IMG/VR virus record: IMGVR_UViG_2711768068_000009
Source: a virus
Lineage: Duplodnaviria > Heunggongvirae > Uroviricota > Caudoviricetes
DNA length: 5,217 bases
Reading direction: 5' to 3' (one strand)
Positions 1 to 5,217 of this stretch are shown in pieces; position 1 is the stretch's first letter, and each line of letters starts with the position of its first letter. A program made the position numbers and the translations under genes. The notes below the pieces were generated by a model, which saw only the letters and a program-made list of their open reading frames with translations, was not told the DNA's origin and searched no databases.

Positions 1-2
1 AT

Positions 3-593
3 AACGCCTATCGTTTCTGGCGTCGTTGCCGGAGTGACGGACTGGGCAACAGGGTGTTTCTGTTCAAGGGGGATGGACTTCGCCGTGACAGGCTGATTAA
101 CCGAACCTTCCCGGATAATACCGGCAGAAGTGCCCGCCGTGCCAGAGCCAGTGGCGATGTCGCGCTGTGGCTGGTTCAGACGGATGCGTTTAAGGATCGT
201 GTAAATAATGCCCTGTGGCGTGACACACCAGGGCCGAACTATATCCACTTTCCCGACTGGCTGGGGCGGTGGTTTTACGATGAGCTGACCTATGAAGAGC
301 GCGGCAGTGACGGAAAATGGCGAAAACCGGGCAGGGGCGCTAACGAAGCGTTTGACCTGCTGGTTTATGCGGATGCGCTTGCCGTTCTGCATGGTTACGA
401 AAAGATCCGCTGGCCCTCCGCACCGGACTGGGCACAGCGGGAAACGTGGCTCGTCTTCCCGCAGGAGCGTTCTGGTGAAACGGTATCCCCGGAACTGACG
501 GCCGGGGCAGAAAAACGCCGTCGCCGGAAGAAAAAACTGTGGACGGAGCGTGCGGAAGATAATCCATGGATAACATCAGGAGGCTGGTTGTGA
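3..593 (+). CDS. Terminase large subunit (lambda gpA-like), C-terminal part; 5' end lies outside the window
   Basis: Reading frame is open from the window edge (codons from nt 3) to TGA at 591-593. It sits immediately upstream of a gpW-like gene and a lambda-family portal gene, the conserved lambda order A-W-B. Its stop overlaps the next start (GTGA). The family call rests on synteny, not on a recognised motif. Confidence 0.55.
   Translation, partial: NAYRFWRRCRSDGLGNRVFLFKGDGLRRDRLINRTFPDNTGRSARRARASGDVALWLVQTDAFKDRVNNALWRDTPGPNYIHFPDWLGRWFYDELTYEERGSDGKWRKPGRGANEAFDLLVYADALAVLHGYEKIRWPSAPDWAQRETWLVFPQERSGETVSPELTAGAEKRRRRKKKLWTERAEDNPWITSGGWL
578..583 (+). promoter_or_regulatory. Shine-Dalgarno AGGAGG for the gpW-like gene
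   Basis: AGGAGG lies 6 nt upstream of GTG 590, which overlaps the terminase stop codon. Confidence 0.5.
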
Positions 594-802
594 TCACAGA
601 AGAAGCCAGAGAAATGATACAGCGGTACCGTGAAGCGGAAATGGCCGTACTGGAGGGAAAGTCTGTCACCTTCAACGGGCAGCAACTGACGCTGGAAAGC
701 CTTTCTCAGATCCGCGCCGGACGTCAGGAGTGGGAACGCAGGCTTGCCGCGATGGTGAGCCGCAGGCGGGGAAAACCGGGATTTAAACTGGCGAGGTTTT
801 AA
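590..802 (+). CDS. Head-tail joining / head completion protein, lambda gpW family (about 70 aa)
   Basis: The product resembles lambda gpW as I recall it: an L-x-G-K-x-V segment and a C-terminal RRRGKPGF (lambda has RRRGPAGF), at similar length. Preferred start is GTG 590-592, preceded by AGGAGG at 578-583 (6-nt spacer) and overlapping the terminase stop. The ORF track's ATG 566 is an in-frame alternative with a weaker ribosome-binding site. Stop TAA 800-802 overlaps the portal ATG. Confidence 0.7.
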   Translation: MITEEAREMIQRYREAEMAVLEGKSVTFNGQQLTLESLSQIRAGRQEWERRLAAMVSRRRGKPGFKLARF

Positions 803-2949
803 TGGCAATTATTGATGATGTGATCGGCGTGTTTTCCCCCGGGTGGAAAGCAGCCAGACTGCGTTCAAGGGCGTTAATCATGGCCTATGAGGCGGTGAAA
901 CCGACCCGGACACATAAAGCCCGGCGGGAAAATCGCTCTGCTGATCAGCTCAGTAAATACGGTGCGGTTTCCCTGCGGGAGCAGGCCCGTTTTCTGGATA
1001 TCAATCATGACCTGGTGATTGGTGTGTTTGACAAGCTGGAAGAGCGGGTGATTGGTGCCAGGGGAATTATTGTGGAGCCTCAGCCATTACGAAAAAACGG
1101 GGAAATGGCGGCTGAGCTGGCTGCGGATATCCGCCGTTTGTGGGCTGAATGGTCCGTGAGTCCGGATGTGACAGGGCAGTATACCCGTCCTGTGCTTGAA
1201 CGTTTACTGCTGCGGACCTGGCTGCGGGATGGTGAAGTGTTTGCGCAGATGGTCAGTGGTGCGGGAAACGGTCTGGAACGGACGGCAGGAGTGCCATTCT
1301 GGCTTGAGGCGATGGAGCCGGATTTTGTTCCCATGCGCACTGATGAATCCGCCGGACTGAATCAGGGGGTTTTTCTTGATGAGTGGGGAAGACCGAAAAA
1401 ATATCTGGTTTATAAAAATTATCCGGTCAGCGGCCGGCAGAGTGATACGAAAGAAATCGCTGCCGGAAAAATGATCCACCTGAAGTTCACTCGTCGTCTG
1501 CATCAGACGCGAGGCTCATCCATGTTATCGGGGGTGCTGATGCGGATCAGTGCCCTTAAGGAGTATGAGGATGCGGAACTGACAGCGGCGCGTATTGCTG
1601 CGGCGCTGGGACTGTATATCCGTAAAGGTGACGGACAGGACTATGAAGATCCGGGGAGCAAAGAGACCGAGCGGGAAGTCCATATCACCCCGGGTATTAT
1701 TTATGACGATTTGCGCAAGGGCGAGGATATCGGCATGGTCAAATCTGACCGTCCCAATCCCAACCTTGAAACTTTCCGCAACGGCCAGTTGCGTGCAGTG
1801 GCAGCAGGCAGTCGTCTGAGTTTTTCCAGTGCGGCGCGTAACTATAACGGCACCTACAGCGCCCAGCGGCAGGAGTTGGTCGAGTCCACGGATGGTTACC
1901 TGATCCTGCAGGACTGTTTTATTGGCGCGGTAACCCGCCCGGTGTACCGGACATGGCTGAATATGGTGGTTGCGGCAGGTCTGCTGAAAATTCCGGCGGA
2001 TTCATCAGTGCGCATGGGAACAAAATCCGGCTCCATCGCCTCAAGCCAGAATGGCACTCCAGGAGTGCCATTCTGGCTTGAGGCGATGGAGCCGGATTTT
2101 GTTCCCATGCGCACTGATGAATCCGCCGGACTGAATCAGGGGGTTTTTCTTGATGAGTGGGGAAGACCGAAAAAATATCTGGTTTATAAAAATTATCCGG
2201 TCAGCGGCCGGCAGAGTGATACGAAAGAAATCGCTGCCGGAAAAATGATCCACCTGAAGTTCACTCGTCGTCTGCATCAGACGCGAGGCTCATCCATGTT
2301 ATCAGGGGTGCTGATGCGGATCAGTGCCCTTAAGGAGTATGAGGATGCGGAACTGACTGCGGCGCGTATTGCTGCGGCGCTGGGACTGTATATCCGTAAA
2401 GGTGACGGGCAGGACTATGAAGATCCGGGGATCAAAGAAACCGAGCGGGAAGTCAATATCACCCCGGGTATTATTTATGACGATTTGCGCAAGGGCGAGG
2501 ATATCGGCATGGTCAAATCTGACCGTCCCAATCCCAACCTTGAAACTTTCCGCAACGGCCAGTTGCGTGCAGTGGCAGCAGGCAGTCGTCTGAGTTTTTC
2601 CAGTGCGGCGCGTAACTATAACGGCACCTACAGCGCCCAGCGGCAGGAGTTGGTCGAGTCCACGGATGGTTACCTGATCCTGCAGGACTGTTTTATTGGC
2701 GCGGTAACCCGCCCGGTGTACCGGACATGGCTGAATATGGTGGTTGCGGCAGGTCTGCTGAAAATTCCGGCGGATGTGGAGATGAAAACGCTATATAACG
2801 CGACGTATTCCGGTCCGGTGATGCCGTGGATCGACCCGGTTAAGGAAGCTGAAGCCTGGAGAATTCAGATCCGGGGTGGTGCAGCGACAGAATCTGACTG
2901 GGTGCGTGCCGGCGGGCGCAATCCGGATGAGGTCAAACGTACAGAGTGA
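802..2949 (+). CDS. Portal protein, lambda gpB family, aberrant: 715-aa ORF with an internal in-frame 258-codon duplication and a truncated C-terminus
   Basis: ATG 802 follows GAGG at 793-796. The N-terminal region and core show lambda gpB-like segments (RENRSADQLSKYGA...HDLVIGVF; MIHLKFTRRLHQTRG). Residues encoded by 1287..2001 are repeated at 2061..2775, joined by a 20-aa linker encoded by an inverted segment. The ORF ends at TGA 2947-2949, created by the second duplication junction, and lacks the native last 45 residues. Confidence 0.75.
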   Translation: MAIIDDVIGVFSPGWKAARLRSRALIMAYEAVKPTRTHKARRENRSADQLSKYGAVSLREQARFLDINHDLVIGVFDKLEERVIGARGIIVEPQPLRKNGEMAAELAADIRRLWAEWSVSPDVTGQYTRPVLERLLLRTWLRDGEVFAQMVSGAGNGLERTAGVPFWLEAMEPDFVPMRTDESAGLNQGVFLDEWGRPKKYLVYKNYPVSGRQSDTKEIAAGKMIHLKFTRRLHQTRGSSMLSGVLMRISALKEYEDAELTAARIAAALGLYIRKGDGQDYEDPGSKETEREVHITPGIIYDDLRKGEDIGMVKSDRPNPNLETFRNGQLRAVAAGSRLSFSSAARNYNGTYSAQRQELVESTDGYLILQDCFIGAVTRPVYRTWLNMVVAAGLLKIPADSSVRMGTKSGSIASSQNGTPGVPFWLEAMEPDFVPMRTDESAGLNQGVFLDEWGRPKKYLVYKNYPVSGRQSDTKEIAAGKMIHLKFTRRLHQTRGSSMLSGVLMRISALKEYEDAELTAARIAAALGLYIRKGDGQDYEDPGIKETEREVNITPGIIYDDLRKGEDIGMVKSDRPNPNLETFRNGQLRAVAAGSRLSFSSAARNYNGTYSAQRQELVESTDGYLILQDCFIGAVTRPVYRTWLNMVVAAGLLKIPADVEMKTLYNATYSGPVMPWIDPVKEAEAWRIQIRGGAATESDWVRAGGRNPDEVKRTE
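1287..2001. repeat. Direct repeat A, copy 1 (715 bp, portal core)
   Basis: Matches 2061..2775 at a 774-bp offset with 6 mismatches (1530, 1584, 1635, 1658, 1665, 1681), compared by eye. Confidence 0.9.
1992..2130. repeat. Perfect inverted repeat / palindrome, 69-bp arms (1992..2060 and 2062..2130) around a single central base at 2061
   Basis: 1992..2060 is the exact reverse complement of 2062..2130, checked base by base; symmetry breaks at 1991/2131. The left arm is an inverted copy of the start of repeat A. Confidence 0.9.
2061..2775. repeat. Direct repeat A, copy 2 (715 bp, portal core)
   Basis: Near-identical to 1287..2001. The match to the downstream copy continues to 2940. Confidence 0.9.
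2212..2940. repeat. Direct repeat B, copy 1 (729 bp, portal core plus C-terminal region)
   Basis: Matches 2942..3670 at a 730-bp offset with about 8 mismatches. A single unmatched A at 2941 separates the copies. Confidence 0.9.
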
Positions 2950-3670
2950 TACGAAAGAAATCGCTGCCGGAAAAATGATCCACCTGAAGTTCACTCGTCG
3001 TCTGCATCAGACGCGAGGCTCATCCATGTTATCGGGGGTGCTGATGCGGATCAGTGCCCTTAAGGAGTATGAGGATGCGGAACTGACTGCGGCGCGTATT
3101 GCTGCGGCGCTGGGACTGTATATCCGTAAAGGTGACGGACAGGACTATGAAGATCCGGGGAGCAAAGAGACCGAGCGGGAAGTCCATATCACCCCGGGTA
3201 TTATTTATGACGATTTGCGCAAGGGCGAGGATATCGGCATGGTCAAATCTGACCGTCCCAATCCCAACCTTGAAACTTTCCGCAACGGCCAGTTGCGTGC
3301 AGTGGCAGCTGGCAGTCGTCTGAGTTTTTCCAGTGCGGCGCGTAACTATAACGGCACCTACAGCGCCCAGAGGCAGGAGCTGGTCGAGTCCACGGATGGT
3401 TACCTGATCCTGCAGGACTGTTTTATTGGCGCGGTAACCCGCCCGGTGTACCGGACATGGCTGAATATGGTGGTTGCGGCAGGTCTGCTGAAAATTCCGG
3501 CGGATGTGGAGATGAAAACGCTATATAACGCGACGTATTCCGGTCCGGTGATGCCGTGGATCGACCCGGTTAAGGAAGCTGAAGCCTGGAGAATTCAGAT
3601 CCGGGGTGGTGCAGCGACAGAATCTGACTGGGTGCGTGCCGGCGGGCGCAATCCGGATGAGGTCAAACGT
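2942..3670. repeat. Direct repeat B, copy 2 (729 bp)
   Basis: Near-identical to 2212..2940. The 730-bp period is not a multiple of 3, so it shifts the frame. Confidence 0.9.
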
Positions 3671-3740
3671 CGCCGCAAGGCTGAAATTGATGAAAACAGC
3701 AGACTGGGGCTGGTCTTTGATACTGACCCCGTCAACGACA

Positions 3741-3747
3741 AAGGAGG
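3741..3747 (+). promoter_or_regulatory. Shine-Dalgarno AAGGAGG for the prohead protease gene
   Basis: AAGGAGG lies 5 nt upstream of in-frame GTG 3753, inside the 3' end of the portal reading frame. Confidence 0.5.
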
Positions 3748-3752
3748 CAACA

Positions 3753-5217
3753 GTGCCGGAACTGAACAACAGCGTCAGCAGGCCACCGACAGCCAGCATG
3801 AAGAATAAATCCTGGTTCAGGATGCAGGCGGGGGGGCAGGGTGAGGCGGATATTTATATTTATGACGAGATTGGTTTCTGGGGCGTCACCGCGAAGCAGT
3901 TTGTCAGCGATATGAATGCCCTGGGTGATATCACCCACATTAATCTCCACATCAACTCACCGGGTGGCGATGTTTTTGAAGGCATCGCCATTTTTAATGC
4001 CCTGAAAAATCACGGTGCGGCCATTACCGTGTATGTGGATGGCGTTGCCGCCTCGATGGCATCCCTGATTGCGATGGCCGGTGACACGGTCATTATGCCG
4101 GAAAATGCCTTCATGATGATCCATAAACCCTGGGGGATCAGCGGTGGTGATGCGGAGAAAATGCGCACTTATGCCGAACGTCTGGACAAACTTGAGTCGG
4201 TTATGGTGCCGGTATATGCGCAGAAAACCGGAAAAACTACCGATGAAATTGCCGCCATGCTGGAGGATGAGACCTGGATGTCCGGTGCCGAGTGTCTGGC
4301 ACACGGATTTGCAGACCAGGTGACGCCAGCCGTTAAGGCAATGGCATGTATTCAGTCAAAACGTACAGAGGAATTTAAAAAGATGCCGGAATCCATCCGA
4401 AATATGATCACGCAGCCACACAACTGTGCCCCGCATGATACCACAGTGACAATCCCTGCACCGACGGTAACAGAACCATCACCGGTACCGGCAGTGTCTG
4501 AGGAGGTGACCATTCGTGCCCGCGTTATGGCAGAACAGAAAGCCCGCATGTCAGGCATTAACGATCTGTTTGCCATGTTCGGCGGTCGCTATCAGACGCT
4601 TCAGGCACAGTGCGTGGCTGATCCTGACTGTTCGCTGGAAATGGCCCGCGAGCGCCTGCTGAATGAAATGGGTAAGGAATCTTCACCGACCAACAAAAAC
4701 ACACCGGCCCATATTTATGCCGGAAACGGCAATTTTGTGGGGGACGGGATCCGCCAGGCGATGCTGGCCCGTGCCGGATTTGAAAATGTCGAGAAGGATA
4801 ACGCCTATAACGGGATGACCCTGCGTGAATGGGCTCGCATGTCACTGACGGAGCGCGGTATTGGGGTGGCCAGTTATAACCCCATGCAGATGGTCGGGCT
4901 GGCGCTGACGCACAGCACCTCTGATTTTGGCAATATCCTGCTGGATGTGTCGAACAAGGGGCTGATCCAGGGCTGGGAGGAATCAGAAGAAACCTTCCAG
5001 AAGTGGACCCGTAAGGGCCGCCTGTCAGACTTCAAAACAGCGTATCGCGTGGGGATGGGCGGTTTTGGTTCTCTGCGTCAGGTTCGTGAGGGGGCGGAGT
5101 ATAAATACATCACCACCTCAGATCGCAAGGAGACCATTGCGCTGGCCACTTACGGGGAGATTTTCTCCATCACCCGCCAGGCCATTATCAATGATGATCT
5201 GAATATGCTGGTGGACG
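3753..5217 (+). CDS. ClpP-type (peptidase S14-like) prohead maturation protease continuous with a scaffold/major-capsid-like C-terminal region; 3' end lies outside the window
   Basis: One open frame runs from 3552 to the window end with no stop. ClpP-like motifs are present: INSPGGDVF, GVAASMAS (candidate catalytic Ser codon 4053-4055) and MMIHKPWG (candidate His codon 4122-4124). Preferred start is GTG 3753, 5 nt downstream of AAGGAGG (3741-3747); in-frame ATGs at 3798 and 3822 are alternatives. The capsid-like assignment of the part after about 4330 is inference from position and architecture. Confidence 0.75.
   Translation, partial: MPELNNSVSRPPTASMKNKSWFRMQAGGQGEADIYIYDEIGFWGVTAKQFVSDMNALGDITHINLHINSPGGDVFEGIAIFNALKNHGAAITVYVDGVAASMASLIAMAGDTVIMPENAFMMIHKPWGISGGDAEKMRTYAERLDKLESVMVPVYAQKTGKTTDEIAAMLEDETWMSGAECLAHGFADQVTPAVKAMACIQSKRTEEFKKMPESIRNMITQPHNCAPHDTTVTIPAPTVTEPSPVPAVSEEVTIRARVMAEQKARMSGINDLFAMFGGRYQTLQAQCVADPDCSLEMARERLLNEMGKESSPTNKNTPAHIYAGNGNFVGDGIRQAMLARAGFENVEKDNAYNGMTLREWARMSLTERGIGVASYNPMQMVGLALTHSTSDFGNILLDVSNKGLIQGWEESEETFQKWTRKGRLSDFKTAYRVGMGGFGSLRQVREGAEYKYITTSDRKETIALATYGEIFSITRQAIINDDLNMLVD

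Follow-up and report, generated by a model that had tools for sequence, protein, structure and literature searches.

Does the portal gene of this prophage carry a heritable 730-bp repeat that has turned it into a pseudogene, or was the repeat introduced when the sequence was obtained? The question was raised by a window of 5,217 nt (the whole stretch of DNA analysed here, IMG/VR record IMGVR_UViG_2711768068_000009, with no Ns), in which the first-pass annotation had described a second tandem duplication that truncates the portal ORF and strands its native C-terminus. Our results indicated that the 730-bp repeat most probably reflects a chimera made during sequencing or assembly, or at most a one-off lesion, because its copies carry different natural variants, its junctions are of the template-switch type and the arrangement was seen nowhere else.

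The head module and its portal ORF

Judged by its sequence, the window is the head module of an E. coli lambdoid prophage of the Stx-phage/CP-1639 type, which comprises terL, a small ORF, the portal gene and a protease-capsid gene:

1..593, plus strand: 3' part of the terminase large subunit gene (terL), extending beyond the window start; collinear with the annotated terL of NZ_CP038425.1 and AJ304858.2
590..802, plus strand: small 70-aa ORF between terL and portal, at the lambda gpW position; 78 aa with start 566
802..2949, plus strand: chimeric portal ORF of 715 aa, composed of native residues 1-400, 20 foreign residues SSVRMGTKSGSIASSQNGTP, native residues 163-455, then TE and the stop
3671..3808, plus strand: native last 45 portal codons (3671-3805) and stop (3806-3808), in frame with copy C alone
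3798..5217, plus strand: 5' part of the ClpP-like prohead protease/major capsid fusion gene (PF00574 and PF25209, reference annotation), extending beyond the window end

This gene order, with the portal gene beside terL and the small ORF and before the prohead protease, is the setting of lambda-family portals. The references annotate the small ORF as a hypothetical protein; 87 contigs encode exactly this protein, and no Pfam match was found for it. Through its 70- and 78-aa proteins we reached 11 loci (L067-L077) that have the window's 594T variant, and all of them encode an intact portal of 500 aa; their homologous terL gene carries PF05876/PF20454. Every relative examined had an intact portal of about 500 aa, and the locus had its native size of 3713 nt, not 5217 nt, in 12 of 12 full-length phage records and in the best 25 genome records.

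When 2002-3505 was removed in silico, the remaining 3713 nt aligned without gaps to O157:H7 strain 2571 and to phage CP-1639, with 33 and 34 substitutions, respectively. As had been claimed, this deletion restored an uninterrupted 500-aa portal, with one amino-acid difference from WP_000974563.1. In its repaired length and its gene order, the locus matched the lambda-family portals (PF05136) of E. coli Stx-/CP-1639-type prophages, for which one copy of the domain in about 490-505 aa is expected. Unlike these, the gene in the window is a truncated 715-aa chimera with a stranded C-terminal piece, a form seen in no other member.

Translation agreed with the first-pass annotation on the fate of the reading frame. 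The period of 730 (3 x 243 + 1) shifts the frame, so the ORF that starts at 802 ends with ...DEVKRTE and the TGA at 2947-2949, and the native last codons are readable only after the third copy. The repeat at offset 774 is in frame, and the inverted segment of the insert, from which the 20 foreign residues are read, has no stop codon in frame. The 715-aa ORF scored 442 bits against PF05136 (gathering cut-off 32.9) over two matched stretches, and the C-terminal 277 aa scored 121.7 bits. Among the best 120 relatives, the plain portals, those with no fusion, were about 480-520 aa long, and no homologue among the best 120 cluster representatives covered more than 60% of the 715-aa ORF. This ORF was absent from a collection of 15 billion proteins; for the 310-aa ORF, seven alternative starts were tried, and five of them were likewise missing. 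The collection does contain the 277-aa form, only because other draft contigs start at native 1432-1461, and the first bases of these contigs are native and not those of the junction. A search of solved structures with the portal gave only a weak sequence match (8vhx, E = 6e-7). For any origin of the insert, the consequence for the gene is identical: the ORF is cut at 715 aa, contains an internal duplication and leaves its last 45 codons out of frame.

Junctions and allele content of the three copies

The reported repeat coordinates held. The segment 2212-2940 recurs at 2942-3670 after a single A at 2941 (offset 730, 721 of 729 positions identical), and 1286-2001 recurs at 2060-2775 (offset 774), the two repeats together accounting for 1504 extra nt in the portal gene. 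Being hundreds of bases long and 98-99% identical, they are not due to chance. The repeat at offset 730 contains eight mismatches (2304, 2409, 2432, 2439, 2455, 2580, 2641 and 2650), which the earlier description did not mention. Tandem Repeats Finder reported nothing in the window, as its longest period is 500. The copies and junctions were located as follows:

1286..2001, plus strand: copy A, in native context, type-1 allele; 1438-2001 identical to the O157:H7 2571 prophage (L065) and seven other panel loci
1992..2001, plus strand: 10-nt inverted microhomology TCCGGCGGAT at the first switch; reverse complement at 1347-1356
1992..2060, minus strand: inverted 69-nt segment, exact reverse complement of 1288-1356
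1992..2130, no strand: 139-nt perfect palindrome, two 69-nt arms around A2061; DNA hairpin of -98.3 kcal/mol, z = -23
2061..2940, plus strand: copy B (native 1287-2166), mosaic, with the type-2 allele at 1530-1681 and type 1 at 1806-1876
2935..2946, plus strand: junction 2, with the single A at 2941, spanned by the 12-mer AAACGTACAGAG; second exact copy at 4359-4370
2942..3670, plus strand: copy C (native 1438-2166), mosaic, with type 1 at 1530 and 1635-1681 and type 2 at 1584, 1806, 1867 and 1876
4359..4370, plus strand: probable intermediate template of junction 2, within the native GTCAAAACGTACAGAGG of the protease gene

At the first junction, the direct repeat of period 774 was present as described, but the idea of a simple duplication failed on the 69-nt inverted segment and the 139-nt palindrome, which had gone unseen. 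The 10-nt match at the switch has a chance expectation of 0.01; its two sites are 636 nt apart, and both are native in the reference loci. The central A2061 equals the window's own 1287A. No other variant in the left 2 kb is private to the window; 1287A lies exactly at the breakpoint and is common to copy A and the palindrome centre.

At the second junction, the A at 2941 matched neither flank, as previously observed. It is nevertheless templated, as it lies in a 12-mer for which the protease gene was the probable template; none of 200 shuffles gave any match of this 12-mer. All 65 related loci that extend to that part of the protease gene have a single copy of the site within GTCAAAACGTACAGAGG, and the junction 2 string was absent from all 78 related loci. 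Further junctions use homologies of 5-6 nt.

The three partial copies differ at nine sites, of which seven are synonymous. It was observed that all nine variants are alleles of natural single-copy portals: eight occur in a panel of 77 loci (51 IMG/VR portals included), and the ninth (1867A) occurs in an IMG/VR contig (L078). The chance that eight of nine random substitutions would match panel alleles is about 4e-12. Copy A matches the common O157:H7 allele over 564 nt with no differences; copies B and C are near-reciprocal mosaics of O157:H7-type (type-1) and OkiPb01678/L078-type (type-2) alleles. The left variant cluster of copy B (window 2280-2480) is a rare allele, found at 100% identity in just three of 5426 complete E. 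coli genomes. These natural alleles and their mosaic pattern indicated that the copies came from different functional templates, not from copying in place followed by drift. The divergent right flank was also considered as an artificial mosaic, and this was rejected: a copying-model test left 16 sites without a panel match, of which 13 are at third codon positions, indicating a natural, more distant allele and no evidence of chimerism.

The 1504-nt chimeric insert belongs to no natural allele. No complete E. coli genome of the 5426 covered 80% or more of either junction-spanning query, and the junction strings had no match in IMG/VR, the GTDB representative genomes or the JGI metagenomes; this count covers relatives and the collections searched. 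The claim that the arrangement is not conserved was upheld, as the comparison with related genomes, set beforehand as the refuting test, gave no genome having the triplication.

Explanations for the origin of the insert

Taken together, the allele mosaics, the protease 12-mer and the inverted segment suggested one multi-template, multi-switch chimera instead of two successive duplications. We consider it probable that the repeat arose by polymerase template switching, or by mis-assembly, on mixed related phage templates. In native (repaired) coordinates, synthesis would have proceeded up to 2001 and jumped to the opposite strand via the 10-nt inverted microhomology, copying 1356 back to 1288. 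It would then have turned round at 1287 and copied forward to 2166, slipped about 700 nt downstream onto the AAACGT of the protease gene, copied ACAGAG and finally re-annealed via CAGAG at 1438 and continued to the end. Along this path the template would have alternated between at least two allelic portal versions. The agent would be a DNA polymerase jumping between templates, most likely outside the cell, either while a sample with several related prophages or phages was being amplified, by strand displacement or PCR, or made into a library, or through an assembly or consensus step that placed allelic versions in series. Under this explanation, the repeat would not be a heritable genome feature.

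Several lines of evidence support the chimera. Every junction base is templated through short homologies (the 10-nt inverted repeat, A2061 as a copy of 1287A, and the 12-mer), and the arrangement was unique across the collections searched. The portal gene is a known assembly trouble spot, being present in up to four places per genome in such strains, and draft assemblies habitually break within it. The ends of draft contigs were examined as a cause of the breakpoints and rejected, as native 1290 and 1432 lie near breakpoints 1288 and 1438 at a rate just marginally above chance.

The junctions also match known in vitro chimeras. For multiple displacement amplification (MDA), a previous study reported that 85% of chimeras are inverted, that the distance between the joined sites is mostly below 10 kb and that priming uses 2-21 complementary nucleotides (PMC1855051). 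The inverted junction of the window, whose sites lie 636 nt from each other and share 10 nt, agrees with this. Palindromic and fold-back artefacts are known from whole-genome amplification, library preparation and long reads (PMC6218980, PMC10908179, PMC12870357), and the perfect fold-back and the 5-6 nt homologies of the window resemble them. Such chimeras, however, normally stay confined to single reads and do not enter the consensus, whereas the window contains four switches in series together with switches between alleles. False duplications in which an assembly places divergent alleles one after another are also known (PMC9516828), and the window shares with heterotype false duplication the allele-specific k-mers on its copies and a multi-copy gene where drafts break. 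Typical scaffold-level cases have Ns between the copies, which the window lacks, and its junctions are non-homologous, one with an inverted segment; moreover, the concept comes from diploid eukaryotes.

That the portal gene is a real pseudogene, produced by one complex MMBIR/FoSTeS event in vivo as a private lesion of a defective prophage, is possible but doubtful. The templates would be co-resident near-identical lambdoid prophages or co-replicating induced phage genomes, and with up to four portal copies per genome such strains could supply them. In vivo replicative template switching yields junction signatures identical to those of in vitro chimeras. A de Bruijn assembler is unable to invent junctions that overlap by just 5-12 nt, so the chimeric molecules must have been present, whether real or made in vitro. 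If only one such molecule lay behind the contig, low coverage or a permissive assembler would be needed. The high base-level quality, with no indels against the references over the 3713 nt, speaks against an in vitro chimera and for a lesion. Damaged head genes are, in addition, common in these prophages, such as a frameshifted protease-capsid gene (L065) and a transposase insertion (L072). Microhomology and templated insertion, found here at every junction, are the signature of MMBIR, and the mixture of direct and inverted duplicated segments also resembles MMBIR/FoSTeS products (PMC2621351); MMBIR-type switching between diverged repeats has been reported (PMC4215184).

Against such a lesion, the arrangement was absent from every related genome examined, including all 5426 complete genomes, and from the other collections searched. 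The event would need at least four non-homologous switches and several homologous ones between prophages hundreds of kb apart. A perfect palindrome is an SbcCD substrate in E. coli, and in a tested palindrome of 460 bp its lethality was due to central symmetry (PMC4245961). The near-perfect 139-bp palindrome should be an SbcCD target and unstable in the host, although it is shorter than those shown to be lethal and could be tolerated. The presence of 1287A at the breakpoint, in both copy A and the palindrome centre, is explained more easily by a consensus step than by biology.

The model of the first-pass annotation, two successive simple tandem duplications of adjacent DNA with later divergence by mutation or gene conversion, is very unlikely. 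The head-to-tail direct repeats with offsets of 774 and 730 are what it predicts, but copies that were identical at birth should differ by random mutation only. Instead, the differences are nine pre-existing natural alleles, mostly synonymous and in a mosaic pattern, which drift in a pseudogene would not give, and gene conversion would have had to generate reciprocal mosaics within 730 bp. The inverted segment in junction 1 and the templated insertion from the protease gene in junction 2 also disagree with it. The allele analysis thus largely refuted this model.

A functional or programmed feature, either a domain-duplicated portal or the TR/VR pair of a diversity-generating retroelement, has a negligible probability and was rejected for want of conservation and for frame disruption: the in-frame first repeat and the open inverted segment would allow it, but the second repeat costs the C-terminal 45 residues, no homologue among the best 120 cluster representatives has the 715-aa architecture, the differences are not adenine-specific (G/A, A/T, G/T, C/A, T/C), and the window has no reverse transcriptase, only terL, the small ORF, portal and protease-capsid.

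Meaning for prophage annotation and biology

The main value of the locus is as a warning. At face value it would receive the annotation of a portal pseudogene, of a "defective prophage" or of a gene duplication, and its allele content and junction anatomy indicate that the reads need to be checked before any such call. The approach, which asks whether the inter-copy differences are pre-existing natural alleles and whether every junction base is templated nearby, is reusable for flagging chimeric contigs in multi-prophage genomes and viromes. It is rather unlikely that the structure is real, as a snapshot of one multi-template replicative accident in which the polymerase made at least four hops on 5-12 nt homologies and several more between lambdoid prophage genomes, co-resident or co-induced. 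If it were real, it would be a modest but clean case of multi-template replicative rearrangement, and its sequence would directly document MMBIR-like, chromoanasynthesis-style events between prophages of enterohaemorrhagic-type E. coli.

Gene content of the window and the interrupted portal gene

The window was compared by megablast with phages and with 5426 complete E. coli genomes, and gene order was read from these matches together with the annotation of two matched records and Pfam. On this basis, its 5217 bases are assigned to part of the head module of a lambdoid E. coli prophage (Stx-phage/CP-1639 type), with the following features:

1-593, 3' end of the terminase large subunit gene (megablast and matched-record annotation)
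590-802, small ORF between terL and the portal gene
from 802, portal gene (PF05136)
from 3798, ClpP-like protease/major-capsid fusion gene (PF00574 and PF25209)

The small ORF (566-802), named "primosomal protein N''" or "PriB/PriC domain protein" in some sources, had no Pfam match; it overlaps the terL stop and adjoins the portal start. Among the 5426 complete genomes, the best identity was 99.9% for 802-2001 and 98.6% for the protease/capsid part (3833-5217). In the latter, a panel of 77 natural single-copy loci (51 IMG/VR contigs together with complete genomes and draft contigs) left 16 differences unexplained. Third codon positions accounted for 13 of these 16, which indicated that the protease/capsid part is a natural, more distant allele. 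A mosaic boundary lies close to the portal/protease border.

The first-pass annotation had described a 730-bp tandem duplication truncating the portal ORF. The repeat itself was confirmed: 2942-3670 equals 2212-2940 at 721 of 729 positions (offset 730), and base 2941, an A, agrees with neither flank. At offset 774, 2060-2775 matches 1286-2001. The window thereby holds three partial portal copies, A (1286-2001), B (2061-2940) and C (2942-3670), which meet at junction 1 (A/B, near 2001-2061) and junction 2 (B/C, at 2941). As proposed, the ORF from 802 is truncated to 715 aa by the stop at 2947-2949, and the 45 final native codons can be read in frame solely after the third copy. In-silico deletion of 2002-3505, which defines the native coordinates used below, yielded a 500-aa portal differing from WP_000974563.1 at one residue. 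The 3713-nt product showed 33-34 substitutions and zero gaps against two references, and the span was also 3713 nt, that is, a single copy, in each of the 12 full-length phage records and in the 25 top-ranking genome records. The HMM match and synteny placed the gene in the lambda portal family; the ORF as written in the window is not a single-domain portal of ~500 aa.

The same triplicated arrangement was looked for in related genomes and was not found. Junction-spanning queries had no place in the 5426 complete E. coli genomes covering at least 80% of the query, the exact junction strings gave 0 matches in IMG/VR, GTDB representative genomes and JGI metagenomes, and the chimeric ORFs were absent from a 15-billion-protein collection. 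Each of 11 loci with the window's 594T variant encoded a 500-aa portal. Of 1767 homologues, the 120 top-ranked cluster representatives were ~480-520 aa long, save a few neighbour-gene fusions and one partial sequence, and none covered more than 60% of the 715-aa ORF. The arrangement is not conserved and is not a functional feature. In other assemblies, the portal is fused with terminase or protease/capsid in ORFs of 668-1159 aa (homologues P0051, P0053, P0055, P0056, P0058 and P0059), presumably frameshift or assembly read-throughs of the same module.

Structure of the two junctions

Junction 1 had been read as a plain duplication, which missed an inverted segment and a palindrome. The reverse complement of 1288-1356 is exactly 1992-2060, and this segment is entered via a 10-nt inverted microhomology (TCCGGCGGAT at 1992-2001, its reverse complement at 1347-1356). 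With the forward copy at 2062-2130 as its right arm, it forms a perfect 139-nt palindrome (1992-2130) with 69-nt arms centred on A2061, and the folding energy of the DNA hairpin is -98 kcal/mol. The central base, also the start of copy B, corresponds to native 1287 of copy A. At this site the window carries A, which occurs in 0 of 78 related loci, G being present in 63. No other private variant occurs in the left 2 kb; 1287A therefore coincides exactly with a breakpoint and is shared by two copies. The minus-strand ORFs at 1896-2114, 2041-2277 and 1080-1340, starting MRMGTKSGSIASSQNGTP... or MQTTSELQVDHF..., result from the palindrome and repeats and are not genes.

At junction 2, the A at 2941, previously described as unmatched, proved to be templated. 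The 12-mer across the junction, AAACGTACAGAG (2935-2946), has one further exact occurrence, at 4359-4370 in the protease gene; 0 of 200 shuffles produced any match. There it sits inside native GTCAAAACGTACAGAGG, found in all 65 related loci covering the site, and the junction strings themselves occurred in 0 of 78. In the simplest reading, the 3' end ...GTCAAACGT (native 2166) would have mis-annealed at the protease-gene AAACGT, been extended by ACAGAG, and re-annealed via CAGAG at native 1438.

Allele content and proposed template switching

The three copies differ at nine native sites (1530, 1584, 1635, 1658, 1665, 1681, 1806, 1867 and 1876). Eight of the nine variant alleles are present in the 77-locus panel (chance for random substitutions ~4e-12), and the ninth, 1867A, was found in the IMG/VR contig L078. 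Seven of the nine variants are synonymous; the replacements, S/I at residue 286 and H/N at residue 294, are both natural alleles. Over 564 nt, copy A shows no differences from a common O157:H7 prophage allele ("type 1"). In copy B, the allele at 1530-1681 is a rare one (type 2), and 1806-1876 is type 1 again; the 201-nt type-2 stretch has 100% identity in only 3 of 5426 genomes, e.g., strain OkiPb01678. The left part of copy C is type 1 except for 1584T, and its right part is type 2 (L078 subtype). Judged by these alleles, copies B and C are near-reciprocal mosaics of two functional alleles, which duplication in place followed by pseudogene drift cannot yield, and that candidate was rejected. 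The three copies were read from different templates. The gene-level consequences and the absence of conservation in the first-pass annotation thus stand, but tandem duplication as the mechanism does not, the mosaic of different natural alleles having been missed.

Templates within the same 5-kb module can account for all bases of the 1504-nt insert, the two single-A "fillers" among them, and copying drew on two or more allelic templates. Template changes fall on 5-12 nt of homology in every case but one, the turn at the palindrome centre having just 1-2 shared nt. We infer that a DNA polymerase was responsible, switching template several times in series. Synthesis would have run forward to native 2001, copied backward from 1356 to 1288, turned round at 1287, gone forward again to 2166, made a 6-nt excursion into the protease gene and restarted at 1438, with homologous switches between alleles en route.

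Origin of the insert

We consider it reasonably likely that the insert is a chimera made outside the cell. Junction 1 is of the main class described for multiple displacement amplification (MDA), whose chimeras are predominantly inverted, link sites close to each other and prime on 2-21 nt (85% of 475 junctions; PMC1855051). Palindromic or fold-back artefacts are known from whole-genome amplification, library preparation and long reads (PMC6218980, PMC10908179, PMC12870357), and the placing of divergent alleles in series by assemblies is also documented (PMC9516828). A genome can hold as many as four copies of the portal gene, and breaks inside this gene are a regular occurrence in draft assemblies. 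The private 1287A in copy A and at the palindrome centre suggests cross-talk between copies during a consensus step. In addition, central symmetry makes a palindrome a lethal SbcCD target in E. coli (case shown, 460 bp; PMC4245961), and by extrapolation from 460 bp the 139-bp palindrome may be such a target. Draft contigs of other strains start repeatedly within a few bases of breakpoints 1438 and 1288 (six related loci, L056-L059, L062 and L063, at native 1432; L040 at native 1290), adjoining sites where prophage paralogues differ; this coincidence is only marginally above chance.

However, base quality is high and there are no indels. Chimeric molecules must have existed, as a graph assembler cannot create junctions of this kind, and microhomology-mediated or fork-stalling template switching (MMBIR/FoSTeS) produces identical signatures in vivo (PMC2621351, PMC4215184). 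A genuine lesion private to one defective prophage is therefore retained as a less likely explanation. In the closest prophage to the window's left part (O157:H7 strain 2571, L065 4493-6471), the protease/capsid gene is a frameshifted pseudogene, and in AP024475.1 (L072 7660-9599) a transposase pair is inserted in it; prophages of this kind often carry genuine head-gene damage.

In its behaviour the insert resembles a chimera of the MDA or fold-back type to which a heterotype false duplication is added; inside a cell, the counterpart would be a complex rearrangement of the MMBIR type. Three other identities were rejected: a simple tandem duplication, paired repeats of a diversity-generating retroelement, and a feature that is conserved or functional. 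The gene behind the 1504-nt insert is an ordinary lambda-family portal, and the insert structure itself is most probably no genuine feature of biology.
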